Shown piece by piece: positions 1 to 28,731 of a stretch of DNA of 29,211 nucleotides. Where the stretch lies: positions 1-29,211 of the IMG/VR virus record IMGVR_UViG_3300031746_000121; one strand, 5' to 3'. Below the pieces are notes generated by a model that was not told where the DNA came from, made no database searches, and saw nothing but the letters and a program-made list of their open reading frames with translations. Source of the stretch: a virus. Lineage: Duplodnaviria; Caudoviricetes. A program made the translations under genes and the position numbers. Numbering within the stretch: the first letter of the stretch is position 1; each line of letters starts with the position of its first letter.

Positions 1-2067
1 CGCGCCGTCATCTTCTTCAACGCTGCCGTCACCCGCATCTTTGTCGCCGCTTGTTAAAGGGGTGTTGGCTACTGATCCACCTGACCCCGTGACTGGTAAC
101 GCTTGAGCGTTTGTGATTCCCGTTTCATATTTAAAGGAGTCAACAATTTCTGTGACTTTTGCCCCGATTTCAGCCTTTAGGTCTTTGACCACCTGCGTGT
201 TGCCAATCGCTGTGGCGACCGAACCAATAGCTGAGTTCACCGCACCCATGATCACGGCAGTACCAACATCGCCGCCGCGAGTAGCGGTTACGATTGCGGC
301 AGAAATTGAAGAGTTAACAGCCTTTTGAATTTCAGCGTTTGTGATACCTGCGTTTTCTAAAATGCCATTTGTGGTTGAGGGGATTACATTGGCAATCGTG
401 GCGCTGATCAAAGTATTAAACGCCGCTTGCATGGGGTCTTGACCACGCGCAGCCGCAGCGGTTGCGGCGATTGCTGTCTGTGTACCAATCTGCGCAACCG
501 CGCCACCGCCGAAGTATTGCGCCCCTGCAGCACCCGCACCCGCTGTCAATGCACCCGTTCCTGCAGCTTTCAAAACGTCAGAGAAGCTGCCGCCTGTTGC
601 TGCCGTGGTAGCGCCACTAATCGCTGCGTTCTTGAGCGCCACGCTTGATATTGCATTCCAGTCAAGTGCGCCTGTGCCACTCGCTAGTGTTCCGCCGACC
701 CCACCCGCTAATTCAGCAACGGTCATCCCTGCGTCAACCGCATACGCAGAAAATTCAGCTAACGAAATTCCAAGGTTGTACGCCGCCATTGCGGGGGCGA
801 TGTACGGCGCAAGCGCAAGGGGTGCTATTTTGAGCGCCGACCTGCCAAGTTCACGCCACTCAGCGCCGACATCGCGCTTGGACTCTTCGGCAAGGCGCAT
901 CTCCACGCCCGGCACTTTTAATTCATCTGCCGTATGCCAAGTGTAAAAGTCCGTACCTGTCAGACCCGTTGATGTGCCGAACCACGCAGCTAATTTGCCA
1001 GTCTTCGGGTCAAAATACTGAGTCGGAAGTCCTTCAAGCGCACCGCCACGCACCAACCCTTTTGCGTCAAACCCGCGCACGCCTTGCTCAAACTGCGTGT
1101 TTACGTCAGCGTTTGGATCAAGAAAAGGCATCTTCGCTTGCAAAAATTCAGGCGATACCGTCATCCCTTTAACTACGTCATCAAGGCTAGCCGCACCGCT
1201 CTGAATTTGGTTGTTGTAACTTGCGACCTCACTTGCGCTTGGCGTGCGACCAAGCAGGTTCTGATACAGGTCGGTGATCTCTTTGTTGTACCCAGTAATG
1301 TTTTTATCTAACTGCTTGGTGTCAATCGCCGCGCCCGTGTCAGCGTTCACATAGCTGATATTGCCCGACTCATCCCGAACCGTTTGAATGTTGGTGGGTG
1401 TGGCAAGATCACGCCGCTCACCTGTGTTGACATTCATCCAAAACGCAGGCGATGTACCGCCAAAATCATCATATGAGGGCGGTTGAAACTCCCATCCTGC
1501 GTTGGGGTTTGCGGCGGTCAACGGCGCTACAGTAGCGGCAGGGGCAGCAGGGGCAGCAGGGGCGGGTGACAGCCCCATTGATTGACCTTCCGCGCTAGAC
1601 GCAAGCGCAGCACGCATCTGTTCGCCAGTCATGCCTGCATTCAGCGCAGCGGTAAAACTTGCCATGCCGCTTGGGTCAGCTTGCCGCCCAAACGTCTGTT
1701 GATAAATATCGTTTACGGTTTGTTGCCACGAGTTTACTGCAGGCGCAAGCGGGGCGGGTGCAGGGGCAGACTCACCACCACCACCACCACCACCACCGTC
1801 ACCACCACCACCACCACCACCGTCACCACCACCACCACCACCACCGTCACCACCACCACCGCCACCACCGCCACCACCACCGCCACCGCCTGAGTCAGCG
1901 GCGGGTGCAGCTTCAGCCCATCCACCTGTACTTACATCACCTGAGTCAATGCCAACATTGCTGCCACCCATGTCACTGCCACCACACAACCGAAGACCTT
2001 GACCACCAATAGGCGTACCTCGCCCCTGAAAGGCGTTGATTGGCAGTAGGTCTAAGGTGTATTTCAT
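1..2067 (-). CDS. Large putative internal virion/DNA-ejection protein, partial (>=689 aa, runs off the left end); not in the ORF track
   Basis: ATG at 2067 overlaps the GNAT stop (ATGA). Reads MKYTLDLLPINAFQGRGTPIGGQGLRLCGGSDMGG..., then a poly-Gly tract, two DUF4214-like repeats and long Gly/Ala-rich hydrophobic segments. Segments translated by hand are open and 2067 is divisible by 3. Position after tail and GNAT genes is typical of ejection proteins. Confidence 0.8.
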   Translation of the reverse strand, partial: MKYTLDLLPINAFQGRGTPIGGQGLRLCGGSDMGGSNVGIDSGDVSTGGWAEAAPAADSGGGGGGGGGGGGGGDGGGGGGGDGGGGGGGDGGGGGGGGESAPAPAPLAPAVNSWQQTVNDIYQQTFGRQADPSGMASFTAALNAGMTGEQMRAALASSAEGQSMGLSPAPAAPAAPAATVAPLTAANPNAGWEFQPPSYDDFGGTSPAFWMNVNTGERRDLATPTNIQTVRDESGNISYVNADTGAAIDTKQLDKNITGYNKEITDLYQNLLGRTPSASEVASYNNQIQSGAASLDDVVKGMTVSPEFLQAKMPFLDPNADVNTQFEQGVRGFDAKGLVRGGALEGLPTQYFDPKTGKLAAWFGTSTGLTGTDFYTWHTADELKVPGVEMRLAEESKRDVGAEWRELGRSALKIAPLALAPYIAPAMAAYNLGISLAEFSAYAVDAGMTVAELAGGVGGTLASGTGALDWNAISSVALKNAAISGATTAATGGSFSDVLKAAGTGALTAGAGAAGAQYFGGGAVAQIGTQTAIAATAAAARGQDPMQAAFNTLISATIANVIPSTTNGILENAGITNAEIQKAVNSSISAAIVTATRGGDVGTAVIMGAVNSAIGSVATAIGNTQVVKDLKAEIGAKVTEIVDSFKYETGITNAQALPVTGSGGSVANTPLTSGDKDAGDGSVEEDDGA
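1774..1890. repeat. ACC/GGT trinucleotide repeat with 24-bp superperiod, encoding G14-D-G7-D-G7-D-G8 on the minus strand
   Basis: 39 codons read directly; (ACC)7GTC units repeated. Confidence 0.95.
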
Positions 2068-14858: not shown

Positions 14859-15302
14859 TTACCAACAAGTTTTCTTGGACAAGCCGCCTGTTTTCATCTT
14901 GGCAGTTTTTGCAGACTGTTTAAAAGCTGCAGCGGTCGGTGCGCCTGCACTACCAACCTTGCGCATTTTCTCGCCCGATCCTGCGGCGATACGTTCTTGC
15001 TTGGCGTGGATATTTGCGTACAAACCACCACCCTTCATCTTTTTGCTTAAAAATGCTTTTTCCACAATTTCTACCCTCTCAGGTTTAGTAGTTGCTTGGC
15101 TAACAATTTTCAATCGTTCAGGCTTGCTTTTGCCTTCATCGTAAAAGCCTGCCTTTTTTAAAGACTGGGCTATACCGCCGTCTTTCATCTTGTCAGCCTT
15201 TGCAAACTCCTTGCCCACCTTTTGAGGTACACCGCCGAATCCACCTTTTGTATGGGCAGCGGCTTTCATCAGCCTGTGTTGAGCAGGGGATTTGCTTGGC
15301 AT
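14859..15302 (-). CDS. Basic modular hypothetical protein with three MKxGG motifs
   Basis: 147 aa, Lys/Ala-rich; MKDGG, MKGGG, MKTGG. Confidence 0.75.
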   Translation of the reverse strand: MPSKSPAQHRLMKAAAHTKGGFGGVPQKVGKEFAKADKMKDGGIAQSLKKAGFYDEGKSKPERLKIVSQATTKPERVEIVEKAFLSKKMKGGGLYANIHAKQERIAAGSGEKMRKVGSAGAPTAAAFKQSAKTAKMKTGGLSKKTCW

Positions 15303-15304
15303 GG

Positions 15305-16081
15305 TTAAGCACCGCTATCAAGAATCAAATAACCTTCAGCACCAATTGAAGCTACATAGGTGTTGGCGCTTGCTCTAAACTTTAAAACAATGTCAGTCTT
15401 TTCCAAAAAAGGGCGTGGCATCACACGCTGCGAGTTATAGTTGACCACAAAAGGCGCTTGCTGAGTAGTCCTAGCAACACCAGTTGAAGAATAAGTTGAG
15501 TTAAGGTAAACCATATAATCTGCCGAACTTCCGTTGGCAGAAGTGTAAGCATCAACACGACTCAAATAAAATGTATAACCTGCAGGAACTGTATAAATTG
15601 ACATTTGACTGCGACCGATACTTTCACCCGCTACGGTAAGACCGATTTGTGCGTAAGTTGTGGTGTTGGTCAAATTTTTAAGCGTAATCGTTCCTGTTGG
15701 CATAGTACCTGCCGTTACAGATGCAACAAAGATGGAATTGATGCGCAAATATGATTTTGCGGTCATAACAGCAGTAGTGCCGTTCAGCGTCAAGTTTTCA
15801 CTAATTGCAACATAGCTTGAATCCAAACCCTGAATTGTAACAACCGTGCCTGTTTTGTCACCGCCAGTATTGATTGTGCTTACCAAGTTCATGGTTGTTG
15901 CGGCAGCAGGGAAAGTGTACGCCGTTGCGTTTTCCCAAGCAGGGATAGCAGTTGTTGTGATGGCAGAACCATAGCCGTAAATGTTTACCGTACTATGTCC
16001 CATAATTTGACTGCGAGCAACTTGCAAGTCAAAGGGTTCATATGTTCCGACACGGGTGACTGAAGAGATGATACTGCCCAT
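15305..16081 (-). CDS. Putative virion structural protein
   Basis: 258 aa, Thr-rich beta protein; AAAGGA ribosome-binding site. Confidence 0.7.
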   Translation of the reverse strand: MGSIISSVTRVGTYEPFDLQVARSQIMGHSTVNIYGYGSAITTTAIPAWENATAYTFPAAATTMNLVSTINTGGDKTGTVVTIQGLDSSYVAISENLTLNGTTAVMTAKSYLRINSIFVASVTAGTMPTGTITLKNLTNTTTYAQIGLTVAGESIGRSQMSIYTVPAGYTFYLSRVDAYTSANGSSADYMVYLNSTYSSTGVARTTQQAPFVVNYNSQRVMPRPFLEKTDIVLKFRASANTYVASIGAEGYLILDSGA

Positions 16082-16094
16082 AATCTATCCTTTG

Positions 16095-16122
16095 AAAAAA
16101 CAAGGGCGACCGCAGCCGCCCC
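16095..16122 (-). terminator. Rho-independent terminator
   Basis: Minus strand GGGGCGGC-TGCG-GTCGCCCT then TGTTTTTT, just after the stop at 16132. Confidence 0.75.
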
Positions 16123-16131
16123 GATTTATTA

Positions 16132-16884
16132 CTAGCAGTTGCCTTTCTTCATTGCCTTGAAGCCGCCGCCGTCTTTGCACTTTACTTTGGCAAAACCACC
16201 GTCAGCGTAACCCGCAGCGCCATTTACGACACCGCCTGTGGCAAATTTCTGAATAACACCGCCAGTTGCATAGCCCTTCATGCCGCCGTGCTTCAGCTTG
16301 AGCGTAGTACCCTTACCGCCCTTATGCTCTTGCATATCGTGCTGCTTGAACGCTTTGCCAATCATCGCCTTGTCTTGGGCTTTGTCCATCTTCATTTCTG
16401 ATTTGGTTTCAGCTTTTGACTCGCCGCCTTTAGCCATGCCGCCCTTCTTGCGCATCATAGGTGCTTGAGCGGCTTTTTGAGCCATTGCAGCCTCAATCAT
16501 CGCTTGGCGTGGGTCAGGCTTGCGTGCGCCCATTGCGGGGCGTGCAGGCATCGCACGACCCATTGCAGCACCCATAGGTGGGCGTGCGCCCATCGCAGGG
16601 GCGGCAGCAGTTGGAAGTGCGCCCATAGGCATACCGCCGCCCATAGCCATCTTCTTGGTTTTGCCGCCTGACTTCATAGCCATGCTAGGGTTGTATGCGT
16701 CAGGCATCATCGCGCCGCCCATGTTCATCTTCTTGGGCATACCGCCTTTTTTGGCAGCAAAAGCAGGTATTTTTTTACCGTCTTTCATGACCATTGGCAT
16801 ACCGCCCGACTTCATGCCCTTTGTGGTCACTTCGTCAGCAGTCATTTCCGTAGACTTCATCTTTGTTTCTGATTTGAAACCCAT
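16132..16884 (-). CDS. Met/Lys/Gly-rich low-complexity protein built from xxxGG repeats
   Basis: 250 aa, 13 GG-containing units; AGGAG ribosome-binding site. Confidence 0.8.
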   Translation of the reverse strand: MGFKSETKMKSTEMTADEVTTKGMKSGGMPMVMKDGKKIPAFAAKKGGMPKKMNMGGAMMPDAYNPSMAMKSGGKTKKMAMGGGMPMGALPTAAAPAMGARPPMGAAMGRAMPARPAMGARKPDPRQAMIEAAMAQKAAQAPMMRKKGGMAKGGESKAETKSEMKMDKAQDKAMIGKAFKQHDMQEHKGGKGTTLKLKHGGMKGYATGGVIQKFATGGVVNGAAGYADGGFAKVKCKDGGGFKAMKKGNC

Positions 16885-16894
16885 GATTTATCTC

Positions 16895-17872
16895 CTATGC
16901 CTGTGTAACGCCAAGAGCGCCAGTGCGGGTTGCGTTCGGGCCAGCCGCGATTGCGGGTAGGGCTATTCCCATCACAAGCCGTTTGATGCCGTCACAAGCA
17001 GATGAGGGCGCATAAGTACCCCTCACATCGCCTGTGGTTGTAGTAGCCGTCAAAGTAGCGGCAACAGTCATTGTGCCTGCATCTTCAGCCAAGGTGTTAT
17101 CCCAACCTGCACGGGCAACGTAACCTCTGTCGGTAATGCGCAATGGCGAACCCAAGATGTCAGTTGTACCCACAGCAACAGTCACCACGCTGCCGCCTGA
17201 AGCGGTAACGCTAGAGATTTGGTAAAAGGCTTTTTTACCGTTGACCGTTGTTGATGCGACTGTACCAGTTGCGATCACTTCGCTCATGGCTTGACCGTAA
17301 TAGTCGTAACCCGAAATGGTAATGTTGACAGAAGTCGGAGTACCTGCGCCTGTGGTTGTAGCAACTGCGCGAGGACAGTCAAGCTGCAAGCCTGTTGCGC
17401 CGCCTGTGATGGTCGTGGATATAACACCTGCACCTGCTGCGAGAGGGAGAGCGGCGGCAGTTGTGATGGCAGCGGCAACAATGTTTGTTGTCAGTTTTGC
17501 CTGTGGTACAGCATCCCAAATGAAGAGGCGACCCAATGGGCCAACACCTACGCTCATGGGTGATGGGTTTTGCAAAGAAGCATTACCCGAACCAATGATT
17601 GTGGCGCTTGCTACAGTTTGTGAGGCGCTTACGGTATACGTTCCTACGCCGCCTGTACCTGTACCAAAAGCGGTAATGCGTGTTCCATTGGTGAGTGCCG
17701 TTGAACTGTCAATAAACATACCAACAGTAATTGGGTCACCCGAAAGCATCGCAGTGACGGTCAGCGTGGTTGTAGCAATTGAACCAGTAAAGGTTGAAAC
17801 AGCAGGGTATGAATCTTCACCCTGAGTGGTAATGGCTGAACCTAAAAATAGGTCGTCTGAAAACTGGGGCAT
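16895..17872 (-). CDS. Putative virion structural (capsid-associated) protein
   Basis: 325 aa, Thr/Ala/Gly-rich, directly after the major capsid gene; AGGAG ribosome-binding site. Confidence 0.7.
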
Positions 17873-17911
17873 TTGAAAACTCCTGTGGCTTGAACCACTC
17901 AGAATTAAATT

Positions 17912-17943
17912 AAAAAAGGGGCGGGTATTTCACCGCCCCCCTT
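17912..17943 (-). terminator. Rho-independent terminator after the major capsid gene
   Basis: Minus strand GGGGCGG-TGAAATAC-CCGCCCC followed by TTTTTT. Confidence 0.85.
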
Positions 17944-17947
17944 TGCT

Positions 17948-18862
17948 TTACACGCCGGGCGTGCCGTACACAGCGCGTGGGTCAGTCCAACCCACGGTGT
18001 AACGCTCAGTAGCCTTGTAGCGCATTGAATCGCTCTCAAAGTCACCTTCCATAGTCTTCTCAAGACCACGGCGCATCATCAACTTCAAGCCTTCAGGCGC
18101 GTCAGTCTGCACCCACCAAGCTGTAGCTGAAGTCAAACGCGACAGAACTGCGCAACCTTCAGGCAACAAACCAATCGACTTGACTGGGTTGATGTCGTTG
18201 TTGGCAGTGCCTGCGCGAAGCACAGACTTCAACAGAACTTCGGCTTGGAACACGTTCCCGGGGGCAACAACCAACTGCTTCGGCTGAAGACGAATCTTCT
18301 TCCCATTATTGTCCACGGCTTGGCGAATCTGAATAAGCATCTGCTCAAGCGAAGTCTGCGACAGATTGGCTGATGTTGCCAACAAGTTGCTGAAGTTGCC
18401 GCTGACAATCGGGTGTGAAGCCGAACTGAGCGCAACGCCATCGCCGCCAACATACGAACTATTGAAAGCGCGGTTTAGCACGTTAGCTGACAGGGTTTCT
18501 TTGGTTTCGACCAAAGACTGTGCCAAGTGCTTGGCATAGACCTGACCCAAACGGATGTGGTCGCCGTCTTCAACGAGTACCTTGGTCAGTGCAAAGGCAA
18601 GCCCGTACACTTTGTAGAGGTAACGCTGTAAGAACAGAACACCACCCTGTTGGTACGTCACTGCGCTACCGTCAGGTAACTCAGGTGCTGCACCGAAGCC
18701 ATACAGGACTGGCTCTTCGTGGTAGTTGCGTGGAATGCCAGTCTGCTCACGGAACACTTTGTTCCACTCGTCAGAGCGTTGGTCATACACGCCATCAAAA
18801 ACTTCGCTCAAGATCGGCTCAACAACCGATCTAAAGTCGGTACTGCGCATTGGTGCTGCCAT
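17948..18862 (-). CDS. Major capsid protein (Mu gpT-like, HK97 fold)
   Basis: 304 aa; 'FGAAPELPDGSAVTY', 'GGDGVALSSASHP', 'LVVAP', 'GDFESDSMRYKATERY..GWTDPR'; followed by a terminator. Confidence 0.85.
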   Translation of the reverse strand: MAAPMRSTDFRSVVEPILSEVFDGVYDQRSDEWNKVFREQTGIPRNYHEEPVLYGFGAAPELPDGSAVTYQQGGVLFLQRYLYKVYGLAFALTKVLVEDGDHIRLGQVYAKHLAQSLVETKETLSANVLNRAFNSSYVGGDGVALSSASHPIVSGNFSNLLATSANLSQTSLEQMLIQIRQAVDNNGKKIRLQPKQLVVAPGNVFQAEVLLKSVLRAGTANNDINPVKSIGLLPEGCAVLSRLTSATAWWVQTDAPEGLKLMMRRGLEKTMEGDFESDSMRYKATERYTVGWTDPRAVYGTPGV

Positions 18863-18873
18863 GTCAGTTCCCC

Positions 18874-19461
18874 TTAGATGGCGTTAACAGTCGAAATGAA
18901 CTGAGGCTTGCTGACTTGTACCCGAACGATCACGAATGGATCGCCCCATGCATTATCTGCATACGGTGCAATATCAACAATACGGAACTGCGCTGCTGAA
19001 CCTGAACCCACAAGCGAAGCTGACAGAGTCATCTGCGATAAGCCAGTGGTGGTTGATCCTGCAGCGAAGTTGCTCAAGTTTGCTTCGTTACCGATAGCGG
19101 TTTGAGCCATTGTTGCGTCAGTCTGAATTTCGTAGACGAGTTGTTGGTCGTTATAAAAATAGGCGACCACGCTGCCTGCGATAGCAGCGGTGCTTGCGGG
19201 CCAGTAATTCGACACACGGCGGCGACCAGTTGTATCAGTCCACTCAACGCCTGCGAATACGCCTGAAACCAAGCCGCTGTTTGTTGTGGTATCCAAGACT
19301 GGCAGAATCACGCCTGCGTTAGGCGAATACTGAACAGCTTGACCCTTCAGGATGCTTGTTGCATACCCTGAAGCAATTCCATTGGCTAACGCCTGTGCTT
19401 TTTCCACACCAGTAGGGAAGTATGCGGGGCGAAGACCAAAAGGTGCGGATGTTGCACTCAT
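18874..19461 (-). CDS. Putative capsid decoration/minor capsid protein
   Basis: 195 aa; 'APFGLRP', 'GVFAGVEWTD..G', 'YEIQ'; immediately upstream of the major capsid gene. Confidence 0.6.
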   Translation of the reverse strand: MSATSAPFGLRPAYFPTGVEKAQALANGIASGYATSILKGQAVQYSPNAGVILPVLDTTTNSGLVSGVFAGVEWTDTTGRRRVSNYWPASTAAIAGSVVAYFYNDQQLVYEIQTDATMAQTAIGNEANLSNFAAGSTTTGLSQMTLSASLVGSGSAAQFRIVDIAPYADNAWGDPFVIVRVQVSKPQFISTVNAI

Positions 19462-19602
19462 TTGAAAACTCCTAAAATAGTTGAAAAGAAATTTTGATTT
19501 TCGCTTTGTTCAAAGCTACAGGCAAAATCACCATACAACGTGATTTTAGAAATTCTTGATTTAGCACCGCCCACCTTATGCAAAATGGGCGGCTATGTGA
19601 GA

Positions 19603-19629
19603 ATTATAAGGTAATTTTCACAAATACAA
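19603..19629 (-). promoter_or_regulatory. Candidate promoter for the decoration and capsid genes
   Basis: Perfect TATAAT (19603-19608) in the largest intergenic gap; TTGTAT lies only 15 nt upstream, so the -35 is weak. Confidence 0.4.
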
Positions 19630-19633
19630 CAGA

Positions 19634-20167
19634 TTACTCAAAAACAGGTAGACGAACATTGCTTTCATCAGGCATACCATCGCCTTCTGACTGAACAAGA
19701 CGGCGACCGCTGCTGTCTTTTGTGTTCAAAAGCTGCTCTTGCTGTGTCCGAATCTTGTCTGACTCTTCAATCGGCGCGAAGTGGTGAGTTTCAAGCATAT
19801 AGTCTTGATAAATCTCCATCGGCAAGCGATAAAGCACCATCTCGTTGATCGAAATGTGTCCGATATTCTCGCCTGACTTGACTTTGAGGTGTTCAAAGCC
19901 TTGCAAGTCATCCGTGGTCACCGCTTGGTAGCCCAAACGCATACGCTTGTGGATCGTGTCGTATGCATTTGTTGTAGAAAGCCAACAATAGTGCCAATTT
20001 GGATCATCAGGCACTTTTGGAAGCGATTCCTGCATGAACTCATCGCGGAACATCTTGCGGCGTGCCAAGGTTGACGCTAATTTCTCGTCTGCAGGGCTGC
20101 GATCTGCGTTTTGTGCTGCACGGCTCTCACGCCCTGCGCCTGAACTGCGTTTTAAACGGCTATCCAT
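19634..20167 (-). CDS. Hypothetical head-module protein
   Basis: 177 aa; 'P.WHYCWL......I..RMRLGY..V'; between scaffold and capsid genes. Confidence 0.75.
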   Translation of the reverse strand: MDSRLKRSSGAGRESRAAQNADRSPADEKLASTLARRKMFRDEFMQESLPKVPDDPNWHYCWLSTTNAYDTIHKRMRLGYQAVTTDDLQGFEHLKVKSGENIGHISINEMVLYRLPMEIYQDYMLETHHFAPIEESDKIRTQQEQLLNTKDSSGRRLVQSEGDGMPDESNVRLPVFE

Positions 20168-21132
20168 TATTGATTTCCTTTGTTAAGACGGTCATGTTCC
20201 ATGTAACGCTTCACCATTGCGGCTTTGCGTACTGGGTCGTTCCAAGCGCCTGTTTCTTTCATGGCTGCGACACGCTCAGGGCTGATGCGATACTCATTTG
20301 AGCGGGTGTTTGGCGCACTTTCACGCCCCGACCCAGTCACGATAGACCTTGGCGGCGTGCGCTGTGAGCGGTCATCACGCTGATTGCGACTTTCAGTAAA
20401 GCGGTGAGGCACATATTTCTTGAGTCGATCATCAAGTTCATCCCAATAGTCTTGTGATGAGGGGTCAAAACCCTCTTCGGTTAAGGTTTTGTCAATCCGT
20501 TGGGCAATTTCTGAGTCCAAGTTCTTGCCTTGAGGGTCGTACCACTTATGCTTTGCCATCCAGTCAGCAGCCATCTCTTGCACCGCAGGATCAGGTACAT
20601 TGATGTTCTGCTTTGGGGCTGACATTTGCTTGGTGGCGTTCGCTTTGATGTTGTTGAGCGCCTCTAGCTTACGCTGCGACTCATACATCAACTCTTGCGC
20701 TTTGACCACAGCATCGCCGTCTTGCTGACTGACAGCCTCACGCATCTTCATCTTGGAGTATTCGATCTGCACTTGCGTGTCATCGATCACTTTATCAACA
20801 CGCGCTAGTTCAGCGCCCGATGTGCGGGTTTCAAGATTAGCCAACCGTGACTCAAGCGCCTGATTCTGCTTCTTCAGCGCGTTGATCAGGTGGTTCGATT
20901 GACTCGCTTTCTCCTTATGAATCTGTTTCTTGAGGCGGCGTTCCTCGCGTCTTGCAGCACGAATCTGCTCACGATCAGGATCGTCATCGTCAACACCCGC
21001 AGTATCGTCAGGATGGTTATCAACATCGCCCCCTTCGGCTAGTGATTGTGGGTTTTCCTGTTCATCGGGCAGGTTGACTACCGCGCTGCCGTCAGCTTCG
21101 TCTTGCATTTCAAGTTTTTCAGTCGAGTTCAT
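20167..21132 (-). CDS. Putative capsid scaffolding protein
   Basis: 321 aa, acidic N-terminus, long coiled coil, 'W...HKWY', basic C-terminus; position between portal and capsid genes. Confidence 0.65.
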   Translation of the reverse strand: MNSTEKLEMQDEADGSAVVNLPDEQENPQSLAEGGDVDNHPDDTAGVDDDDPDREQIRAARREERRLKKQIHKEKASQSNHLINALKKQNQALESRLANLETRTSGAELARVDKVIDDTQVQIEYSKMKMREAVSQQDGDAVVKAQELMYESQRKLEALNNIKANATKQMSAPKQNINVPDPAVQEMAADWMAKHKWYDPQGKNLDSEIAQRIDKTLTEEGFDPSSQDYWDELDDRLKKYVPHRFTESRNQRDDRSQRTPPRSIVTGSGRESAPNTRSNEYRISPERVAAMKETGAWNDPVRKAAMVKRYMEHDRLNKGNQ

Positions 21133-21527
21133 AGGAACGCCTTAACTTTGAGTGGATCACCAGTTACTTTTGAGATCACTTCGATATCATTGAAGATGGC
21201 AAACAGAGCGCACTCTTTGTTATCTTCGCCAAGTGGTACTTCCCACCGATCACCGCCCCAACGTGGTACGCGCACATAGTCGCCTACCGCCGCCCAAACA
21301 CCTTCAGCCCACAACTCTAGCGTGTCGCGGTTGCGGTAAGCCAATGCGCCAAGTTCAATGACTTTGCACACCTGCGTGTTCCACTTTTCAGTTTCTTTGG
21401 TTTCTTCCACAAGAATGATTCCACTTGCTGTGGTCTTCTTGGGGGTTTGCTTGAACTGGACTAAGACTCTTCCACCAAGCGGGGCGCAACCTGAATCAAC
21501 TACTGGAAATGCTTCTTCTAAAGTCAT
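21129..21527 (-). CDS. groES: GroES/Cpn10-like co-chaperonin
   Basis: 'PLGGRVLV', mobile loop 'TASGIILVE', 'VIELG..AY', 'VGDYV', 'IFNDIEVISKV'. Confidence 0.85.
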   Translation of the reverse strand: MTLEEAFPVVDSGCAPLGGRVLVQFKQTPKKTTASGIILVEETKETEKWNTQVCKVIELGALAYRNRDTLELWAEGVWAAVGDYVRVPRWGGDRWEVPLGEDNKECALFAIFNDIEVISKVTGDPLKVKAFL

Positions 21528-21541
21528 ACGACTTCCTTGTT

Positions 21542-21594
21542 AAAAGCGCCATTCGGCGCGGGTATTGAAAGGTTTGTTTTTAAAGACAAACCTT
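21542..21594 (-). terminator. Two tandem hairpins; the second is terminator-like
   Basis: AAGGTTTGT...ACAAACCTT inverted repeat (21569-21594), then minus strand GCGCC-GAAT-GGCGC-TTTT (21542-21559). Confidence 0.45.
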
Positions 21595-21595
21595 C

Positions 21596-21775
21596 CTAAA
21601 TCTCGCGTTCATCCTCTTGCAATAGGTTGTCGAGCATCTCTAAGGCTTCACCAAGCCCCTGATACTCTCCGACCAAGCGGTGATACGACTCAATATTGAT
21701 TGCGCGACCTTCAGCAAGAGCAAGCGCGATTTCCACGCGCCGCTTCTTGATCTGATCGATTAACTGGTTGATCAT
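21596..21775 (-). CDS. Hypothetical protein, 59 aa (MINQLIDQIKKRRVEIALALAEGRAINIESYHRLVGEYQGLGEALEMLDNLLQEDEREI); not in the ORF track
   Basis: ATGA overlap with the upstream gene, TAG at 21596; helical 'Y..LVG..QGL..A' pattern. Confidence 0.8.
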   Translation of the reverse strand: MINQLIDQIKKRRVEIALALAEGRAINIESYHRLVGEYQGLGEALEMLDNLLQEDEREI

Positions 21776-22053
21776 TTGCCGTGACTAGCAGATTTAATTT
21801 TTCTGCGTTTAGGCAAAAGTTTTTCTCTGATGTTGCCGCCCTCTACATTGCCGCCTCTTTTAAATGTGGCAATCTTTGCGCCTGTTCCTTTGACCAATGG
21901 CATGACCTCACCCTTGGCGGGTAGGTTAGCGACCTTGCTCTCAGCCATGACTGCGCCGCCGCCTGCGAACTTGGGGAGTGACCCCTTGCCCTTTGCCATC
22001 GGAACGGATTCGCCCATTGCCATGCGTTTGTGTTGCGAGATACCTTCAGCCAT
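21772..22053 (-). CDS. Small basic hypothetical protein with FAGGG and FKRGG motifs
   Basis: 93 aa; AGGAG ribosome-binding site within the end of the portal gene. Confidence 0.75.
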   Translation of the reverse strand: MAEGISQHKRMAMGESVPMAKGKGSLPKFAGGGAVMAESKVANLPAKGEVMPLVKGTGAKIATFKRGGNVEGGNIREKLLPKRRKIKSASHGK

Positions 22054-22055
22054 GA

Positions 22056-24596
22056 TTAAACTCCTTGGGGTGGTTCAGTTGGGGGTTGTGCTGCTTCCTG
22101 CTGTGCTTGTGCTGCCTGTTGTGCTTGAAGTTGCTGCTCTTGCTGCGCCTGCAATTGCTGACGCTGCTGCTCATGTTGCTGCTCAAGCGTCAGCAAGTTG
22201 ATATCGTGCGTAAGTTCTGCGGCTTTAATTTGCTGATCAGCCACGTTTTTTTCTTGCTTGGCTTGAGTGTCTGCAGTTAACTTCGCTGCCTCAAACTGCA
22301 ATCGATCATTGTCGTTCTTCGCCTTGCGCTGAGTTTCAGCCATCTGCGTTTGAACCAGTGCCTGAACTGATGGATCATTCGGTTGTTGCTGCGATTTCAA
22401 TTGCTGAATCGTCTGAATCATCTGCTGCATGACAGGCATCATGCCTTGGAACTGTTCAGCCGTATCCTGATGCAAGTGCTGCGATGACAGGGCAAGCAAC
22501 TGCTGCGCTTTGTCAATGATCGGTTGCACCTTCAGAATGTTGAACGGTTCTTGCAGCGAATTGCTTGCGTATGCATCCATGCGCTGCAGATACCACAGCG
22601 TTAGGTGCTGCTTGATGTGTTCAAGCGCAGCGGGAATGAACGCAGGGGCTACGATGGGGTTTGCGCCGTACACAGGGTCTTTGGCGTAGTCCAAATGCAC
22701 CTGAAGGTGTGCTAGGTGGTCTTGATGCGGGAACGCGCCTGCAGGCTTGCCAAGCGTCATAGCCACGTTCTCAAGCGCGGGGTTCATCTCTTTAACGTCT
22801 TGCGGATCAGGTAGCACTTCATTGATATCAGGAAGTTTGATTTGCTTAAGAATGCGCTTTTCAACAGCCAAGAGGTTATAAAGATTTGGATTCGCCTGCG
22901 CTCTTGCGGCGAGAGCCTGAATCTGAGCATAGCGTTGCGACTCCGCAAAGATGTGGGGATCAGAAACTGGTACGACATCGGTGTTGCGCTCAAAGTCCTC
23001 CTTGGTCACGCCAAGTTCTTGAGCCATGTCGGTCTTCTCAACATCAAGATACCAACGGTTCAAGCGACCAAGAATCTTCAGTACACGCGCCTGACTTGTG
23101 TGCAACCGCGAGTGGATCGATGAGAACACCGCAGCGCCCTGTTCGATCAGCGCCTGAGTCGTACCAACGGGGGAGTTGGATGTGACGTTGGCGATCTTTT
23201 CTTCGGCGGTAGTGACTACCCCCTTGGCTGCGGTGGTCAGCCACCCTAGAAGCTGAAATAGCACGGCAGAGGGTGGGTTGAACGGCATGGGCATGGCGAT
23301 CTTGCGGATGTCATCGACACCGGGCGCACCTTCGATCTCCACCACCTGCGTGGGTTCAACCGTCTGACTCTGACCCGAAATCTTCCCGCCCTTCAGCTTC
23401 AGCATCGTGCTGCTGTTGTTGATGTGTGCGCTATCCAACAAAGCACGCAAGCTACCAGTAAGCGCGGCAGCAAGACCGCCGATCAGGTGTGGCAAGCCAA
23501 TTGCGTATGCGCCGCGCCACGGGATGAACTTGAATTCAACGATCCAATCCAACTTGATCATGTCCTCGTCACCGTCTTCCCAGTTCCGATACATCCCAAT
23601 CACTTCGGTTGTCTGATCATCGATCATCAAGATGTAGGGGGCGCGTTCGCCGCCTGACTCTTTATCGTCTTCGATCTCCATCCATGTGTAGATGTGATAC
23701 ACGCGCCGCACGCCATCAATGTTCTCGTTCTCAGACTTGCGACCCTCAATGCGGTCGTTCGCCTTTTCAGGTCGGCTTTGCTCAGGCTCTTGGCTTGCGC
23801 GGTAGATGTCGGTGTCGCGGTACATCCCTGATGCCACGCGCACGCCGTACTCGTCTTCGGTCAGGTCGTTGACTTCGGTCACACGCGAGGCGGTGTAGAA
23901 GTTTGCAGCCGCGAACGGTAGGTATACGTTGTCAATCGGCAGGAACTCAGCGCAGGGGCGGCGCTTACCCTCGTCATACCACATCTTCATGTACTGACTG
24001 CCGCCCAAGGGAAGCTGCGTCAGAAGCTGCTCTTCCTCATCGCGGTACTCTTCGATCTGTTCGGTAAGCTGCCAGTTCATAAAGTCGCGCTTGCGCTCTG
24101 CGAGTTTGGTCTTCTGCTCTGTGACCTCGCCTGCGATCTTGGTCTTGACTGGCCCGTCAGGCGGGAACAATTCCTTGATGGCGCGTGCTGCGAAGTCAAC
24201 GCAACCTTCTGCCATCACGGGATGCACGACACGCGATGCGCCGTTGAACTGAGCGCCGCCGGGGGCATCGTTGCCCATGCCAGTTCTGCGTAACCCGTCT
24301 TCGTATTGCTTGTCGCGCTCTTCACGCGCCTCTTTGTCTTTTTCGACCAGTTCAATGTACTTCAGCGCGATGTCGCCCAAGTCATACGAATCAAGTTCTT
24401 CAGCCATGTTGCTGTAAAAGTCAGGCGAGTCTTCGGGTGTCTTCAGATCATCAAGGTTGACAACCGCTGACCCGTCATCCATCTCTTGGATGCTTTCATC
24501 AAACAAGTGAACTTCAGCGATCTCACCTAGCGCACCCATGTCCTCAATCGGATCAATGTGGCGGTCGTAGTCCTGCGGTATAGGCATATCAGCCAT
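22056..24596 (-). CDS. Portal protein (P22-like) with Gln-rich C-terminal extension
   Basis: 846 aa; 'GASRVVHPVMAE', 'ELFPPDGPVKT', 'DFMNWQLTE', 'PVGTTQALIEQG...FSSIHSRLH', 'PVSDP'. Confidence 0.85.
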   Translation of the reverse strand: MADMPIPQDYDRHIDPIEDMGALGEIAEVHLFDESIQEMDDGSAVVNLDDLKTPEDSPDFYSNMAEELDSYDLGDIALKYIELVEKDKEAREERDKQYEDGLRRTGMGNDAPGGAQFNGASRVVHPVMAEGCVDFAARAIKELFPPDGPVKTKIAGEVTEQKTKLAERKRDFMNWQLTEQIEEYRDEEEQLLTQLPLGGSQYMKMWYDEGKRRPCAEFLPIDNVYLPFAAANFYTASRVTEVNDLTEDEYGVRVASGMYRDTDIYRASQEPEQSRPEKANDRIEGRKSENENIDGVRRVYHIYTWMEIEDDKESGGERAPYILMIDDQTTEVIGMYRNWEDGDEDMIKLDWIVEFKFIPWRGAYAIGLPHLIGGLAAALTGSLRALLDSAHINNSSTMLKLKGGKISGQSQTVEPTQVVEIEGAPGVDDIRKIAMPMPFNPPSAVLFQLLGWLTTAAKGVVTTAEEKIANVTSNSPVGTTQALIEQGAAVFSSIHSRLHTSQARVLKILGRLNRWYLDVEKTDMAQELGVTKEDFERNTDVVPVSDPHIFAESQRYAQIQALAARAQANPNLYNLLAVEKRILKQIKLPDINEVLPDPQDVKEMNPALENVAMTLGKPAGAFPHQDHLAHLQVHLDYAKDPVYGANPIVAPAFIPAALEHIKQHLTLWYLQRMDAYASNSLQEPFNILKVQPIIDKAQQLLALSSQHLHQDTAEQFQGMMPVMQQMIQTIQQLKSQQQPNDPSVQALVQTQMAETQRKAKNDNDRLQFEAAKLTADTQAKQEKNVADQQIKAAELTHDINLLTLEQQHEQQRQQLQAQQEQQLQAQQAAQAQQEAAQPPTEPPQGV

Positions 24597-27500
24597 GTTT
24601 ATTCCTTAGTAACTCTTTGCGCATATCGTCTGCGGATTTGGCGAACGACACCTTGCCGCCCTTTGCCATGTGAATGCCTGTGCTGAACTCTTTGCGCATC
24701 GCGGGGGTGATGTCCATGTAGTGCAGGGGTTCGGCAGCACCTTCTACGTCAACGGTTGTCTTGCCAACGCCTGCACCGTACTTTTTGCCGAATTTCTTGA
24801 GGTAGGTTGGGTATATCTCGTCGTAATACTTCTTCATGCCCTCGCCGCCGACTTCCAAGTCCACACCGCTTAAAGTTCTTGCGCCATATTTATTTGGTTC
24901 TGAATCTAATAATTTTTTTGCAACTTCTTTACCAACAATTGCACCCAATTCTTCGGGTTTTTTACCATTTAAACTTTTAACGCTGTCACGATTTTTATAA
25001 AAATATATATCGCCATTTTTGCCGTACACAATTTCGTCAACATGGTTGGTCAATTTAAACCGATCTGCCACCCGCGCACCAGTCGGCAGCGCCACACGGT
25101 CGTAGCCGCCATCGATTGCTTCTTTGACCGCACGGCGTAGGGCGAGTTGATACCAGTCGTCTTTGTAGGGGGCGTTGGGTACGCCTTCTTTGACTTTTCT
25201 TTCGTGAGTTTCATATTTGATGTCAACCATATTTTTCCAACCAACATCAATATTTGCTTCAGCCTCTTCTTTGGTTTTGCCAAACCCAATTGGGATTCGT
25301 TGACCATCTTTTGTTTCGTAATATGCCTCAACAGATTTTTCCATTGTTGGGCCATACCCCTGTTCTCTTCCCGCCTGATGCCAGTCAGACTGCACCTCAT
25401 CGACGAGCAGCGTCTTCTTGCCGTCAGTCACTCGATCGCTCATGCGCAGGTGGGCGAGTACGTTGGGTTCGTCAAAGTGTGATGAGCGGTAAGGATCGGT
25501 CATAGCTTTTTTCCAACTTTCAGCTAACTCATCTGAGCCGCCACGCTGCAAAATGTCGTTCACTGATATTCTGTCAGTTTTGTTTTTAGTGATACCTAGT
25601 GCTTTAATTTGATCCATCAACGCATCTTTTGGATCAGGCATCGTGATCACCACCTCGCGGTAGTTTTCGCCCCCGGGCAGCGCGTGTTCTTCGAACTTTG
25701 TAGGCTTAGAGTTAGGAATTTCATACGCGCTATTAGCTTCTGCATTTCTTTTGAGTTGCACGTTAATTATTTGATCTTCAACTTTGCGCCGAGATGCATT
25801 GTCACCTGCGTCAAAATAAGCATCATGTTTTTTGTACAACCTATCAATTTCAGGTTGATAAAAATCAAATATTTCTTTGCGATTTGCCATTCCAACAGGA
25901 TCTTCTTTAACTGCCCCATACAACGTCTCACCCAAGCCCAACTTGTTCTGCGCGATGTAGTCCTGCACTTCAGCCGCTGTGACGTTTTTCTTGTCCTTGA
26001 GCCATGTATCCAAGCCCATACCGCTGATCTCTTCAGAGCGCACGTTCTCGCCCTTCATAATGTCATTCAAAAACGCCTGACCGTTGCCTGACTTGCGCTG
26101 CAGGTTCAGTGCTGCCGCCTCAGTGGGCGAGTAGAACCCCTGCTCATTGGCGGGGGCGAGTGCCTTGGCAGGTTTAGGTGCTGACGGTTCAACCATAAAT
26201 GCGTTGGGGGCGACCATGCCGGGCATCTGCCCACGACCGTACAACTCCGCTGCCATCTCTGCCGCACTCTTGGCGAACGGAGTAATTGCTTTAGCGCCTG
26301 TTCTGACCACCTTCGTTGCAGCCTTGGCAGCAGGCCCACCAAACTGAGCGATGTCAAGCACCCGTGGGTCAAGCAGCGGCTCTGTTCCGTTGCTCAGATT
26401 CTTCCAATTTTTGTCAATAATTCCGCGCACAGGATTGTCTTCGTCTGTTTCGCGTACCGTGCCTGTCAAGTCTTGCATCAATGTACCCGCACCTTTAAGC
26501 GGATCAGCTAAAAACATATTAGCCAAGAAGTTTTTGACAGGGTGCTTCTCTGCGGTTGGCTCAATCGACTCGCTTATGAACTTTCCTGCTTTGTCCATGT
26601 ACCCGCCGAACGTACCGATCCAATCTTGCACTGGGTTGCGAGGCGTAGCTTGCATCACAGGGCTGTTGGCGAGTTCGTACCGCATCTGATCAAGCGATGC
26701 CTGACCGCCCTCGTCAAAGCGTTGCACCTGACCGCCGTTCGCCATGTGCCGACCGCCCTCATGCATCCCGATGGATGTGCGGTACTGGTCGAACGTCATC
26801 TTGCCCATATCGCCCTGAACTGGTGTCTGCACCTGACCGCCAATGGCTTCTGACAGCACCTGACCGCCTTGCGCCATGCGAACTGCGCCGCCGTGTGCCT
26901 TGGTGATAGACGGCTCGTTGGGGTCATATGTGCCACGGTTACCGATGGCTGATTTGATTTGGCGCTCAGGGTCGAGCATGATGTATTCGTGCGGCTCGTT
27001 GGACTTGTGCGGGTCGGCGTAGTGGATGTAGTCGTAACCCGCCTCTTTAATTGCTTTTGCCGTGTTTGGCGAAACCATATAGGGCAACTCGCCTTTGCCG
27101 CCTGCAAATACGTCATTCGCCCATTGTTGCATCTGCGGATCATCAATCAACAATGGTCGAGATGCGTTGCTGTAGACGGGCATCACGTTTGTGCCTTCTT
27201 TAAACCCGCGCTGCCCACCACCAATATTGTGTGCGGCGGGTTGATACTCAGGGTTGTCGGTCAGCCAAGTTGCCACACCGCTCATTGTTGGATCGTTGCC
27301 GCCTGCCTTAAACTGGTCAAAGTCCTTGGGCGTTGCGTGGTACAGCCGAAGCGGATCGCCTTCGTCTGTTTTGATCTTGCCGCTGCTCATCCACTGCTTC
27401 AGGTTCGCATCCTTCTCTGCCTGCGACAACGCAGCAGGTTTGGTCGCCGCCTTAGCAATCTTCTTCATCGCGCCGCCCCCACCCATGCGCTGCGGCTGAT

Positions 27501-28731
27501 TCATCAGCGCGTACTTGGCTAGGTCGAGGTCAAGCAGACGCGCAGCCTGTGGGTCGCGCACGGTGTTCTTGATTGCCTCTTCGGGTACTGAATCAACCAT
27601 GCCGCCATCAGCTTTGCGGATGATGCCGCCGTCAGCGTTGCCGTGCTTCTGCAGATGCGTTAGCCACTCTTCAGTAATGTTTTGGCTTGGCAACCCTTCG
27701 CCTTTAAAACCTTTAGTCAGATCGTAGTAGCTAGGATTGCGGTTTGGGTCGCGTGGTGACTGGGGATTAAGTCGTGCAAATTCAGCGTTACGCCGTGCAA
27801 ACTCGGCGCGGTAATCGGGTAGCGCAATCTCGTTAGGAACTGGGCGCACCTTTACGCCAAGGTCTTCTCCGTGTAATAACATCGGAAAGCCGGGGTGTAG
27901 GTCTGGTCGGAATGACGTTTCGCCGTTCATTGTGAAGAGGCGCGGGCCAAACGCAAAGGTTGGCACATCACCACGAAGACTAGGCTCAGTTTCACGGGTA
28001 AGAATACTAAGCGGATCAAAAATAACCCCCTTACCGCTCTTCGCGCCACCCAATGCTACGCCGCCTTTCTTTGGGGGAATACCCTCGCCGATCATAATAT
28101 CGGACAATGCCGCACGGCGGTCAAAACTGTCAGCCTCTTTCCAAATGTTCGGGTCGCGGATATCAGCGCCTTCGCCAAGGGTCAACGCTAAGTTGTGATT
28201 GATCTTGGCTTCTAGTTCTGGGCTTAGTTTCCCGTCTTTCATTGCTTGTCTAAATTCTTTTTCTAGCTTGGCAAAGACGATTGGGTTGGTCTTGAGTTGG
28301 GTTTGCGATCCCAATAGCGTTGTCCAAATTGTGCGAGGATCATTTTGATTGATCAAACCGCTTGCCGCGCTTTTGCTACCAACGCCCCAAACCATGTCTG
28401 CGTAGTTGGGATCAGCTAACGACATTGCGGAGAAGCCGGGGCCGCCAATGTTACCGCCCCCGACACGGGTTCGATCTGCTTGGGTGGCGACTAACCGCTT
28501 GCCTTCGGCGTTTAGGTTGCCCAACGCCTCAGACATCGGTAGTTCAGGTTGAGCAACGATCTGTGCTGCGGCTGCTCGACCTGCCGCTGCGCGTTGTGCC
28601 GCTGTGATTGTCTTGAGCGGCTCTTCACCTGACGCTTCTCTAATTGCATTCAACGGCGATGTCTTAGGCTTATTAGGCGTAACAAGGTCTATAAACGCAT
28701 TAGCTGCTGTCTTTGCTTTAGCCATGATCAC
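24589..28731 (-). CDS. Large polyvalent-type multidomain protein with an ADP-ribosyltransferase-like domain and a DEVQSDWHQ domain
   Basis: 1380-aa ORF; central 'LYHAT...WLTDN...NVMPVY...GYD.I....EYI..DP..QIKS'; C-terminal 'LPGGENYRE...SHFD..N.LAH.R..D...DEVQSDWHQ.GR'. Confidence 0.75.
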   Translation of the reverse strand: MIMAKAKTAANAFIDLVTPNKPKTSPLNAIREASGEEPLKTITAAQRAAAGRAAAAQIVAQPELPMSEALGNLNAEGKRLVATQADRTRVGGGNIGGPGFSAMSLADPNYADMVWGVGSKSAASGLINQNDPRTIWTTLLGSQTQLKTNPIVFAKLEKEFRQAMKDGKLSPELEAKINHNLALTLGEGADIRDPNIWKEADSFDRRAALSDIMIGEGIPPKKGGVALGGAKSGKGVIFDPLSILTRETEPSLRGDVPTFAFGPRLFTMNGETSFRPDLHPGFPMLLHGEDLGVKVRPVPNEIALPDYRAEFARRNAEFARLNPQSPRDPNRNPSYYDLTKGFKGEGLPSQNITEEWLTHLQKHGNADGGIIRKADGGMVDSVPEEAIKNTVRDPQAARLLDLDLAKYALMNQPQRMGGGGAMKKIAKAATKPAALSQAEKDANLKQWMSSGKIKTDEGDPLRLYHATPKDFDQFKAGGNDPTMSGVATWLTDNPEYQPAAHNIGGGQRGFKEGTNVMPVYSNASRPLLIDDPQMQQWANDVFAGGKGELPYMVSPNTAKAIKEAGYDYIHYADPHKSNEPHEYIMLDPERQIKSAIGNRGTYDPNEPSITKAHGGAVRMAQGGQVLSEAIGGQVQTPVQGDMGKMTFDQYRTSIGMHEGGRHMANGGQVQRFDEGGQASLDQMRYELANSPVMQATPRNPVQDWIGTFGGYMDKAGKFISESIEPTAEKHPVKNFLANMFLADPLKGAGTLMQDLTGTVRETDEDNPVRGIIDKNWKNLSNGTEPLLDPRVLDIAQFGGPAAKAATKVVRTGAKAITPFAKSAAEMAAELYGRGQMPGMVAPNAFMVEPSAPKPAKALAPANEQGFYSPTEAAALNLQRKSGNGQAFLNDIMKGENVRSEEISGMGLDTWLKDKKNVTAAEVQDYIAQNKLGLGETLYGAVKEDPVGMANRKEIFDFYQPEIDRLYKKHDAYFDAGDNASRRKVEDQIINVQLKRNAEANSAYEIPNSKPTKFEEHALPGGENYREVVITMPDPKDALMDQIKALGITKNKTDRISVNDILQRGGSDELAESWKKAMTDPYRSSHFDEPNVLAHLRMSDRVTDGKKTLLVDEVQSDWHQAGREQGYGPTMEKSVEAYYETKDGQRIPIGFGKTKEEAEANIDVGWKNMVDIKYETHERKVKEGVPNAPYKDDWYQLALRRAVKEAIDGGYDRVALPTGARVADRFKLTNHVDEIVYGKNGDIYFYKNRDSVKSLNGKKPEELGAIVGKEVAKKLLDSEPNKYGARTLSGVDLEVGGEGMKKYYDEIYPTYLKKFGKKYGAGVGKTTVDVEGAAEPLHYMDITPAMRKEFSTGIHMAKGGKVSFAKSADDMRKELLRNKHG

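Follow-up and report, generated by a model that had tools for sequence, protein, structure and literature searches.

A di-glycine peptide at module joints of podophage head-internal and ejection proteins: a candidate cleavage or docking signal

Results

Enrichment of the motif

A short peptide with a di-glycine core recurs at the joints between modules of proteins that are likely packed in the head of a short-tailed phage (podophage), and we tentatively favor the reading that these proteins are cut there, before A/K-x-G-G, during head maturation. The proteins are encoded in IMG/VR record IMGVR_UViG_3300031746_000121, whose 29,211 bases are the whole virus record and are called the window here; it carries the late module of the phage, with every gene, and hence every window feature located below, on the minus strand. 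An earlier note on this DNA had described a hydrophobic-x-x-Gly-Gly motif in five head-region proteins, named here by their length in amino acids (aa), and had considered it a common address for unrelated cargo, acting either as a cleavage site or as a procapsid-binding peptide.

The literal motif [MFYL]xxGG occurs 24 times in the five proteins (nine copies in the 1380-aa protein, two in the 93-aa protein, one in the likely scaffold, nine in the 250-aa protein and three in the 147-aa protein), compared with 4.1 copies expected after full shuffling and 9.4 when the glycines were kept fixed. None of the 3000 shuffles reached 24 motifs under either null, so the excess over shuffled sequences by which the earlier note had proposed to judge the motif is present. 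The remaining 26 window proteins hold 21 motifs compared with 16.2 (full shuffle) and 17.3 (glycines fixed), which is not significant, and the Gly-rich fibers show no motif excess. All of the motifs named in the earlier note were found where it had placed them. Two of them, KADGG and KAHGG, with Lys in the first place, are near-matches only; similarly, its figure of about 12 copies for the 250-aa protein is reached solely with near-matches.

The capsid protein of the window is encoded on ~2,200 IMG/VR stretches, from which we took 80 related loci; ten near-complete relatives (49-60 kb) were examined whole. The consensus in relatives is [YMF(L)]-[KA]-x-G-G-x-[VA]. When distinct GG windows were counted in the 80 loci and the window, Met, Phe or Tyr stood three places before GG (position -3) in 418/802 cases (52%) in the 250-aa family, 28/39 (72%) in the 93-aa family, 44/110 (40%) in the 147/87-aa family, 68/236 (29%) in the large proteins and 11/65 (17%) in the scaffold, compared with 36/875 (4%) in control families. 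At position -2 of the 250-aa family, Lys accounts for 45% and Ala for 24%. Furthermore, the 521 motif copies comprise 364 distinct 15-mers whose synonymous codons vary freely, which indicates that selection acts on the peptide; a role of the motif as a DNA-level recombination site was rejected for the same reason. The tandem spacing is tight, with 207 of 479 gaps no longer than 13 aa.

Position of the motif at module joints

The 1380-aa protein (24589..28731), a polyvalent-type cargo protein encoded between the terminase and portal genes, has at least three modules, at about aa 46-371, 421-615 and 800-1360, and its motifs cluster between modules, at aa 365-377, 416-420, 611-676 and 1355-1359. 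NADGG, KADGG and MGGGG lie at 27472..27639, KAHGG, MAQGG, MHEGG, MANGG and FDEGG at 26704..26901, and the C-terminal MAKGG(KV) at 24655..24669, where the phrog_7348 module (aa 1073-1358) ends. An ART-PolyVal ADP-ribosyltransferase domain (aa 456-601; 26929..27366; Pfam PF18760, E 9e-13, above the cut-off) is flanked by MGGGG (416) and KAHGG/MAQGG (611/619), and phrog_21376 spans aa 422-611. The earlier note had seen the motif in linkers, but FKAGG (aa 474) is inside the ART-PolyVal domain.

BLAST matches of the 1380-aa protein stop at the motif clusters and the order of the blocks differs from genome to genome: the counterpart of aa 46-371 is found at 38-379 in the relative G010, at 902-1190 in G009 and at 610-931 in L043, and in G010 the ART-PolyVal block is flanked by two MDKGG peptides. 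Matches of the 147-aa protein likewise stop at motifs, which bears out, in homologues, the bias to domain boundaries that the earlier note had expected. The 1380-aa protein is thus large, is encoded next to head genes, bears an ART-PolyVal effector domain and has a mosaic of domains that varies among relatives. In these traits it resembles the phage-type polyvalent proteins of Iyer et al. 2017 (PMC5512222); the accessible part of that paper names no common linker motif, and the word 'glycine' occurs in it 0 times.

The basic 147-aa protein (14859..15302) consists of three small modules that end in MKDGG (15174-15188), MKGGG (15024-15038) and MKTGG (14883-14897), and two of its stretches, 1-40 and 92-137, correspond to PHROG families of small proteins that stand alone (phrog_16759 and phrog_16028). 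Beside it stands the 87-aa DUF6321 protein (PF19846; 14605..14868), a motif-free, stand-alone form. In relatives, DUF6321 is fused in 52 proteins and the motif stands ahead of it in 51 of them. The stand-alone forms, the window's included, are motif-free in 4/4 cases, and their first residues lie roughly at the position expected for a cut.

The 250-aa protein (16132..16884) is basic (isoelectric point, pI, 10.2) and rich in Met, Lys and Gly; its nine literal motifs equal the family median. An N-terminal T/S-E-P-S peptide is kept in 63 of the 67 distinct complete family members. The last three residues include Cys in 60/67 members, 53 of which end in Cys, although Cys makes up 0.5% of the residues; in the window, the gene end at 16132-16140 encodes such a C-terminal Cys. 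A disulfide anchor or a targeting peptide is possible for these two termini.

The basic 93-aa protein (pI 10.7; 21772..22053) carries FAGGG (21955-21969) and FKRGG (21850-21864), and an alignment of 13 family members shows no change in either GG pair. Among the loci L001-L080, the gene slot between the portal and 59-aa genes is filled by the 93-aa type in 15 and by a short, motif-free type of ~58 aa in 25 (25 of 51 loci). The two families have an N-terminal H-x-x-(M/L)-A-x-G peptide in common, and this peptide alone is retained in the motif-free one. The window's 93-aa copy lacks the C-terminal sequence of its family, which may be due to a frameshift.

The likely scaffold (321 aa; 20167..21132) has LAEGG at 21028-21042, a single copy that is not significant alone (p 0.05-0.12). 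Among 60 full-length scaffolds, however, 25 have xAxGG in the first 75 aa compared with 1.7 after shuffling, so that the copy is optional. The major capsid protein (304 aa, HK97/Mu gpT type; 17948..18862) has YQQGG (aa 70; 18641-18655), which the earlier note had not listed. This peptide is present in 79/79 close relatives and is clade-specific, since more distant capsids, those of HTVC023P and CRP-901 included, lack it; for that reason it was set aside as a part of the system and is likely a coincidence.

A conserved domain in the first ejection protein

Could a domain of the ejection proteins read this peptide? The window ends within the likely first ejection protein gene (E1), of which it holds the 5' part (1..2067). 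In 80 further loci whose genes were numbered relative to E1, the motif density per 1000 aa is 1.57 in the E1 gene (96 copies in 61,030 aa), 0.27-0.54 in the next three genes (41 in 100,638 aa) and 0-0.25 in the six upstream genes (5 in 109,208 aa). The motif is thus present in ejection proteins and not in tail genes. In addition, 13 of 79 copies lie within 30 aa of the C-terminus, compared with 3.2 expected.

In 10/10 near-complete relatives, the C-terminal part of E1 has between one and four motif-like peptides and, after them, a conserved domain of ~85 aa, which we call the GG-module domain, with the pattern x-V-x-G-x-G-x-G-x-S-D-x-I-x-A-x-L-x-D-G-E-[YF]-V and with invariant Asp and Glu residues; from these relatives, the same domain would be expected in the E1 of the window. 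In 120 close homologues (the domain being mislocated in four), 276 of 302 motifs lie no more than 80 aa upstream of it. The domain has no Pfam match, as a scan of 60 members also showed. A profile of the domain finds 20,365 protein clusters at E<=0.001 and matches the C-termini of the tape measures of Douge (8zdo_S, E 4.5e-9 and 1.2e-11) and JBD30 (8rk3_A, E 7e-4); of 19 members compared with PHROG, 18 hit tape-measure families. A structure model had a mean predicted local distance difference test score (pLDDT) of 55, with the beta part unresolved.

In 21 genomes other than the window, we looked for an excess of motifs in proteins other than the one that bears the GG-module domain: 13 of 16 genomes with the domain showed it, and 0 of 5 without it. 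The three exceptions among the domain-positive genomes, without excess, are RW, Pag-Yong1 (35 kb part) and HTVC103P. The domain is also found as a stand-alone gene in MW202675, and it adjoins the portal gene in HTVC103P. The MW202675 gene (L144:8103-8684) is a double copy, and proteins of the L212, L219 and P0241 types have tandem domains, the second of which opens with A-x-G-G-x-V/I-x-A right before the conserved strand. Near the N-terminus of the window's E1, poly-Gly repeats (G7-8 D) are encoded at 1734-1900 and are followed by DUF4214 repeats; the length encoded by E1 in relatives ranges between 590 and 3000 aa. Two contigs binned as Burkholderiaceae and Limnohabitans carry the GG-module domains closest in sequence, a weak hint of the host.

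Register of the putative cut

The earlier note had suggested cutting after GG, in the style of clan CE or C39 peptidases. The register can be gauged from three cases in other phages, as described in the accessible parts of the papers cited here. T5 pb2 is converted to pb2* and pb2C, and intact-mass measurement places the cut after R1127 (PMC10038345), in FVPR|AEGGMM; R-A-x-x-G is invariant in 5/5 T5-family sequences aligned. Lambda gpH is converted to gpH* and gpHC of about 78 + 14 kDa by a catalyst stated to be unknown (PMC12617516), and a cut at its FATGG (733) predicts 80 + 12 kDa. In crAss001 C1 (gp45), the portal-bound density starts at residue 425 (domain 425-552; 12 copies on the portal wing; PDB 7QOG; Pfam crAss_CARG1, PF25725), and a second piece, 214-245, is in the tail (PMC10172136). 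Residue 425 is the Ala of N-A-F-G-G, and each resolved piece falls within a single inter-motif stretch; gp45 (L230:16988-19516) has six A-x-G-G peptides, at 207, 261, 330, 425, 560 and 826. By analogy, T5 and crAss001 would point to a cut before A-x-G-G and not after GG, with which lambda is compatible.

T5 pb2 and lambda gpH resemble the podophage proteins in having x-A-x-G-G at or near the cut and then G..E-hydrophobic-V within 15-50 aa. On the other hand, tape measures have one or few motif copies in one tail protein, whereas the podophages have dozens across head-internal and ejection proteins. The crAss001 C1 protein is similar to the podophage carriers as an ejected cargo with repeated A-x-G-G, and its resolved domain opens at the Ala and has a G-E-V-V strand. 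The nearest named ESM Atlas cluster to the GG-module domain is crAss_CARG1 (ESM feature score 0.85, 112/256 features shared), which we treat as a lead only: hidden Markov model and hhalign comparisons gave no support for the link (0.4%), although the G-E-x-V register is the same in both.

The JBD30 paper (PMC11445458), in the part accessible, describes the GG-module domain only as a predicted hook. Its authors equate that hook (1022-1066) with T5 1085-1127, a correspondence that we did not use, as the T5 stretch of like sequence starts after R1127 in our analysis. The accessible parts of the P23-45 and phi24B papers contain nothing on the motif.

Protease search and the 177-aa protein

As the earlier note had stated, no protease is recognizable in the window: Pfam and PHROG gave no protease family among its 31 proteins, nor did Pfam among 19 large or ejection proteins of relatives. 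The 177-aa core protein (19634..20167), which the note had listed among possible motif partners, fared poorly. A small alpha/beta domain was modeled confidently at ~aa 50-140 (AlphaFold pLDDT 75.5), but the model has no Foldseek match at E<=0.001, its best VIA-align Z is 5.3, on one long helix, and the ESM Atlas gave unnamed matches only. Furthermore, a homologue is kept in CRP-901, a phage without the motif and without the GG-module domain. The 177-aa protein as a protease is therefore unsupported, and the GG-module domain of E1 is the better candidate reader.

Genomic setting

The late module runs in the order terminase end, 1380-aa protein, portal, 93-aa protein, 59-aa protein, GroES, scaffold, 177-aa protein, 195-aa protein and capsid, followed by the 325-aa, 250-aa, 258-aa, 147-aa and 87-aa proteins, adaptors, fibers, lysis genes, nozzle, GNAT and, truncated by the window end, the likely ejection gene. 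The portal protein (846 aa; 22056..24596; phrog_1216) has no clear motif copy and is a possible docking surface. Cultured relatives are the Caulobacter phages RW, GB2A, RLK and KcrB (capsid 78% identical) and, more distantly, CRP-901/902, HTVC023P/027P and Pag-Yong1.

Between the portal and the scaffold lies a GroES-like gene (21129-21527) that is kept in 10/10 near-complete relatives and in the distant isolates; this conservation suggests that capsid folding depends on a phage co-chaperonin. In the relative G001 (L081:63-3394 and the end of L083), several tail-fiber-region genes and a small motif-bearing 87-aa gene are present twice, at both ends of the record, which may reflect terminal redundancy or an assembly overlap.

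Discussion

The motif marks the joints between exchangeable modules of proteins likely packed in the head. Its enrichment, its position at joints, the constraint at protein level, the restriction to head-internal and ejection proteins and the conserved E1 domain of relatives are established by the data above. From them we infer a pathway in which the carriers would be loaded into the prohead, perhaps via their own N-terminal peptides (T/S-E-P-S; H-x-x-(M/L)-A-x-G). A cut at the motif would then yield basic peptides of 1-8 kDa and single effector domains of ~16-76 kDa for storage and ejection, and the cutting may be done, or aided, by the GG-module domain of E1, possibly docked near the portal. 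The common address proposed in the earlier note for unrelated head-internal proteins is supported by the enrichment, the module joints and the presence of the motif in ejection genes and not in tail genes, with cleavage somewhat more probable than docking as its use.

Several results weigh against a cut. Among the downstream copies, 12 of 37 are within 40 aa of the C-terminus (2.3 expected), where a cut frees few residues, and the C-terminus of RW gp066 is YMDGGRV. One copy, FKAGG, lies inside the ART domain, and another is in the capsid protein of all the close relatives. The GG-module domain has invariant Asp and Glu and no recognizable catalytic triad, and no gene family common to the ten near-complete genomes was recognizable as a protease in the Pfam scan of the 31 window and 19 other proteins. 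Only five genomes were domain-negative, some of them related to one another and two incomplete, and they were judged by the podophage profile alone. The support from other phages is similarly qualified. The T5 site is disputed, with V1148 as the other candidate and with trypsin also able to cut at R1127 (PMC11937520), and the crAss001 authors interpret C1 as one intact chain that passes through the portal (PMC10172136). The crAss001 motif differs (A-F/Y-G-G) and is confined to gp45. For the GG-module domain, hhalign detected no homology with either T5 pb2C or crAss001 C1 (probability 0.4% in both cases), and its match to lambda is weak (E 0.0018, probability 15%), with phrog_24 positions shared.

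A possible, though less favored, explanation is that the peptide is an uncut docking tag that binds the portal, the scaffold, the capsid interior or the GG-module domain, with many copies giving avidity. It explains the C-terminal copies (13/79 and 12/37) and the tandem copies better than cleavage does, and the close spacing, the xAxGG peptides of the scaffolds, the 12 copies of the A-x-G-G-initial crAss001 C1 domain on the portal wing (PMC10172136) and the failure to find a protease in the proteins scanned are all in line with it. Against a docking tag, all four stand-alone DUF6321 proteins are motif-free, the short family in the 93-aa slot retains the N-terminal peptide alone in 25/51 loci, and in T5 a peptide of this kind is the very place of the cut. 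Docking and cleavage are nevertheless compatible with each other.

We consider it unlikely that the motif is a flexible hinge or unfolding turn that helps modules to thread through the portal, has no dedicated reader and was spread when short repeats recombined. Gly-Gly turns do fit linkers, and the motif-rich head proteins are dispensable, as RW has no detectable homologues of the 250-, 93-, 147- and 1380-aa proteins; yet a hinge does not need fixed aromatic/Met, Ala/Lys and Val positions, the freely synonymous DNA argues against a recombination site, and the motif excess occurs only with the GG-module domain.

Cutting after GG by a clan CE or C39-like cysteine protease of phage or host is highly improbable. 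The clan CE proteases (adenovirus protease and the pS273R of African swine fever virus) recognize (M/L/I)-x-G-G, with the hydrophobic residue two places before GG, and have a His-Asp/Glu-Cys active site. The basic, Met/Lys/Gly-rich carriers do resemble the core precursors of these viruses in bearing a di-glycine motif, and 53/67 members of the 250-aa family end in Cys. However, the podophage motif has its hydrophobic residue at position -3, the register is likely different, as the sites in T5 (R1127|AEGG) and crAss001 (A425) precede A-x-G-G, and no such family was found in the 31 window proteins or the 19 large or ejection proteins of relatives. Double-glycine leaders of the C39 type, which are single, N-terminal and exported by a C39-ABC transporter, fit no better: no C39 match was found in the window, the copies are multiple and internal or C-terminal, and 0 of 37 downstream ejection-gene copies lie within 40 aa of the N-terminus. 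A compositional artefact, which the 17% Gly and 14% Met of the 250-aa protein could suggest, is refuted by the excess that survives glycine-fixed shuffles and by the lack of excess in the Gly-rich fibers.

How does the motif compare with known signals on head proteins? The T4 capsid targeting sequence is one short N-terminal peptide per cargo, which the positions of the motif do not match; the N-terminal peptides of the 93-aa and 250-aa families might be an address of that kind. T4-type prohead protease sites end in Glu. The systems of T4 gp21 and SPN3US gp245 (PMC10052503, accessible part) are similar in placing one short motif on many head and ejection proteins, but they are read by a known prohead protease, whereas none is recognizable in the proteins scanned here. 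Short motifs that direct the maturation of virions or the addressing of cargo are already known as a kind of signal, and the motif described here is real and can be tested directly in cultured phages. No description of it was found in the literature searched, with subscription journals outside the coverage.

The preferred reading, cleavage during head maturation, can be extended further, to a proposal that we regard as speculative and rather improbable: the A-x-G-G modules of podophage E1, siphophage tape measures and crassvirus C1 would be one unrecognized family of maturation peptidases that cut themselves at x|A-x-G-G, and a portal-docked ring of them would cut all motif-bearing cargo. If true, this would identify what cuts lambda gpH and T5 pb2, a catalyst long missing, account for crAss001 C1 in head and tail as separate fragments, and provide a plug-in rule for the loading and release of shuffled effector modules.

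How short-tailed phages choose, store and release the proteins they inject is poorly known. A single motif, a predicted register and a candidate reader make this question, and that of the lambda gpH catalyst, testable in cultured RW, HTVC023P, crAss001 and lambda. The clade is highly abundant, with its capsid on ~2,200 IMG/VR stretches and the domain in ~20,000 protein clusters, and a portable signal for loading and release would serve phage protein delivery.

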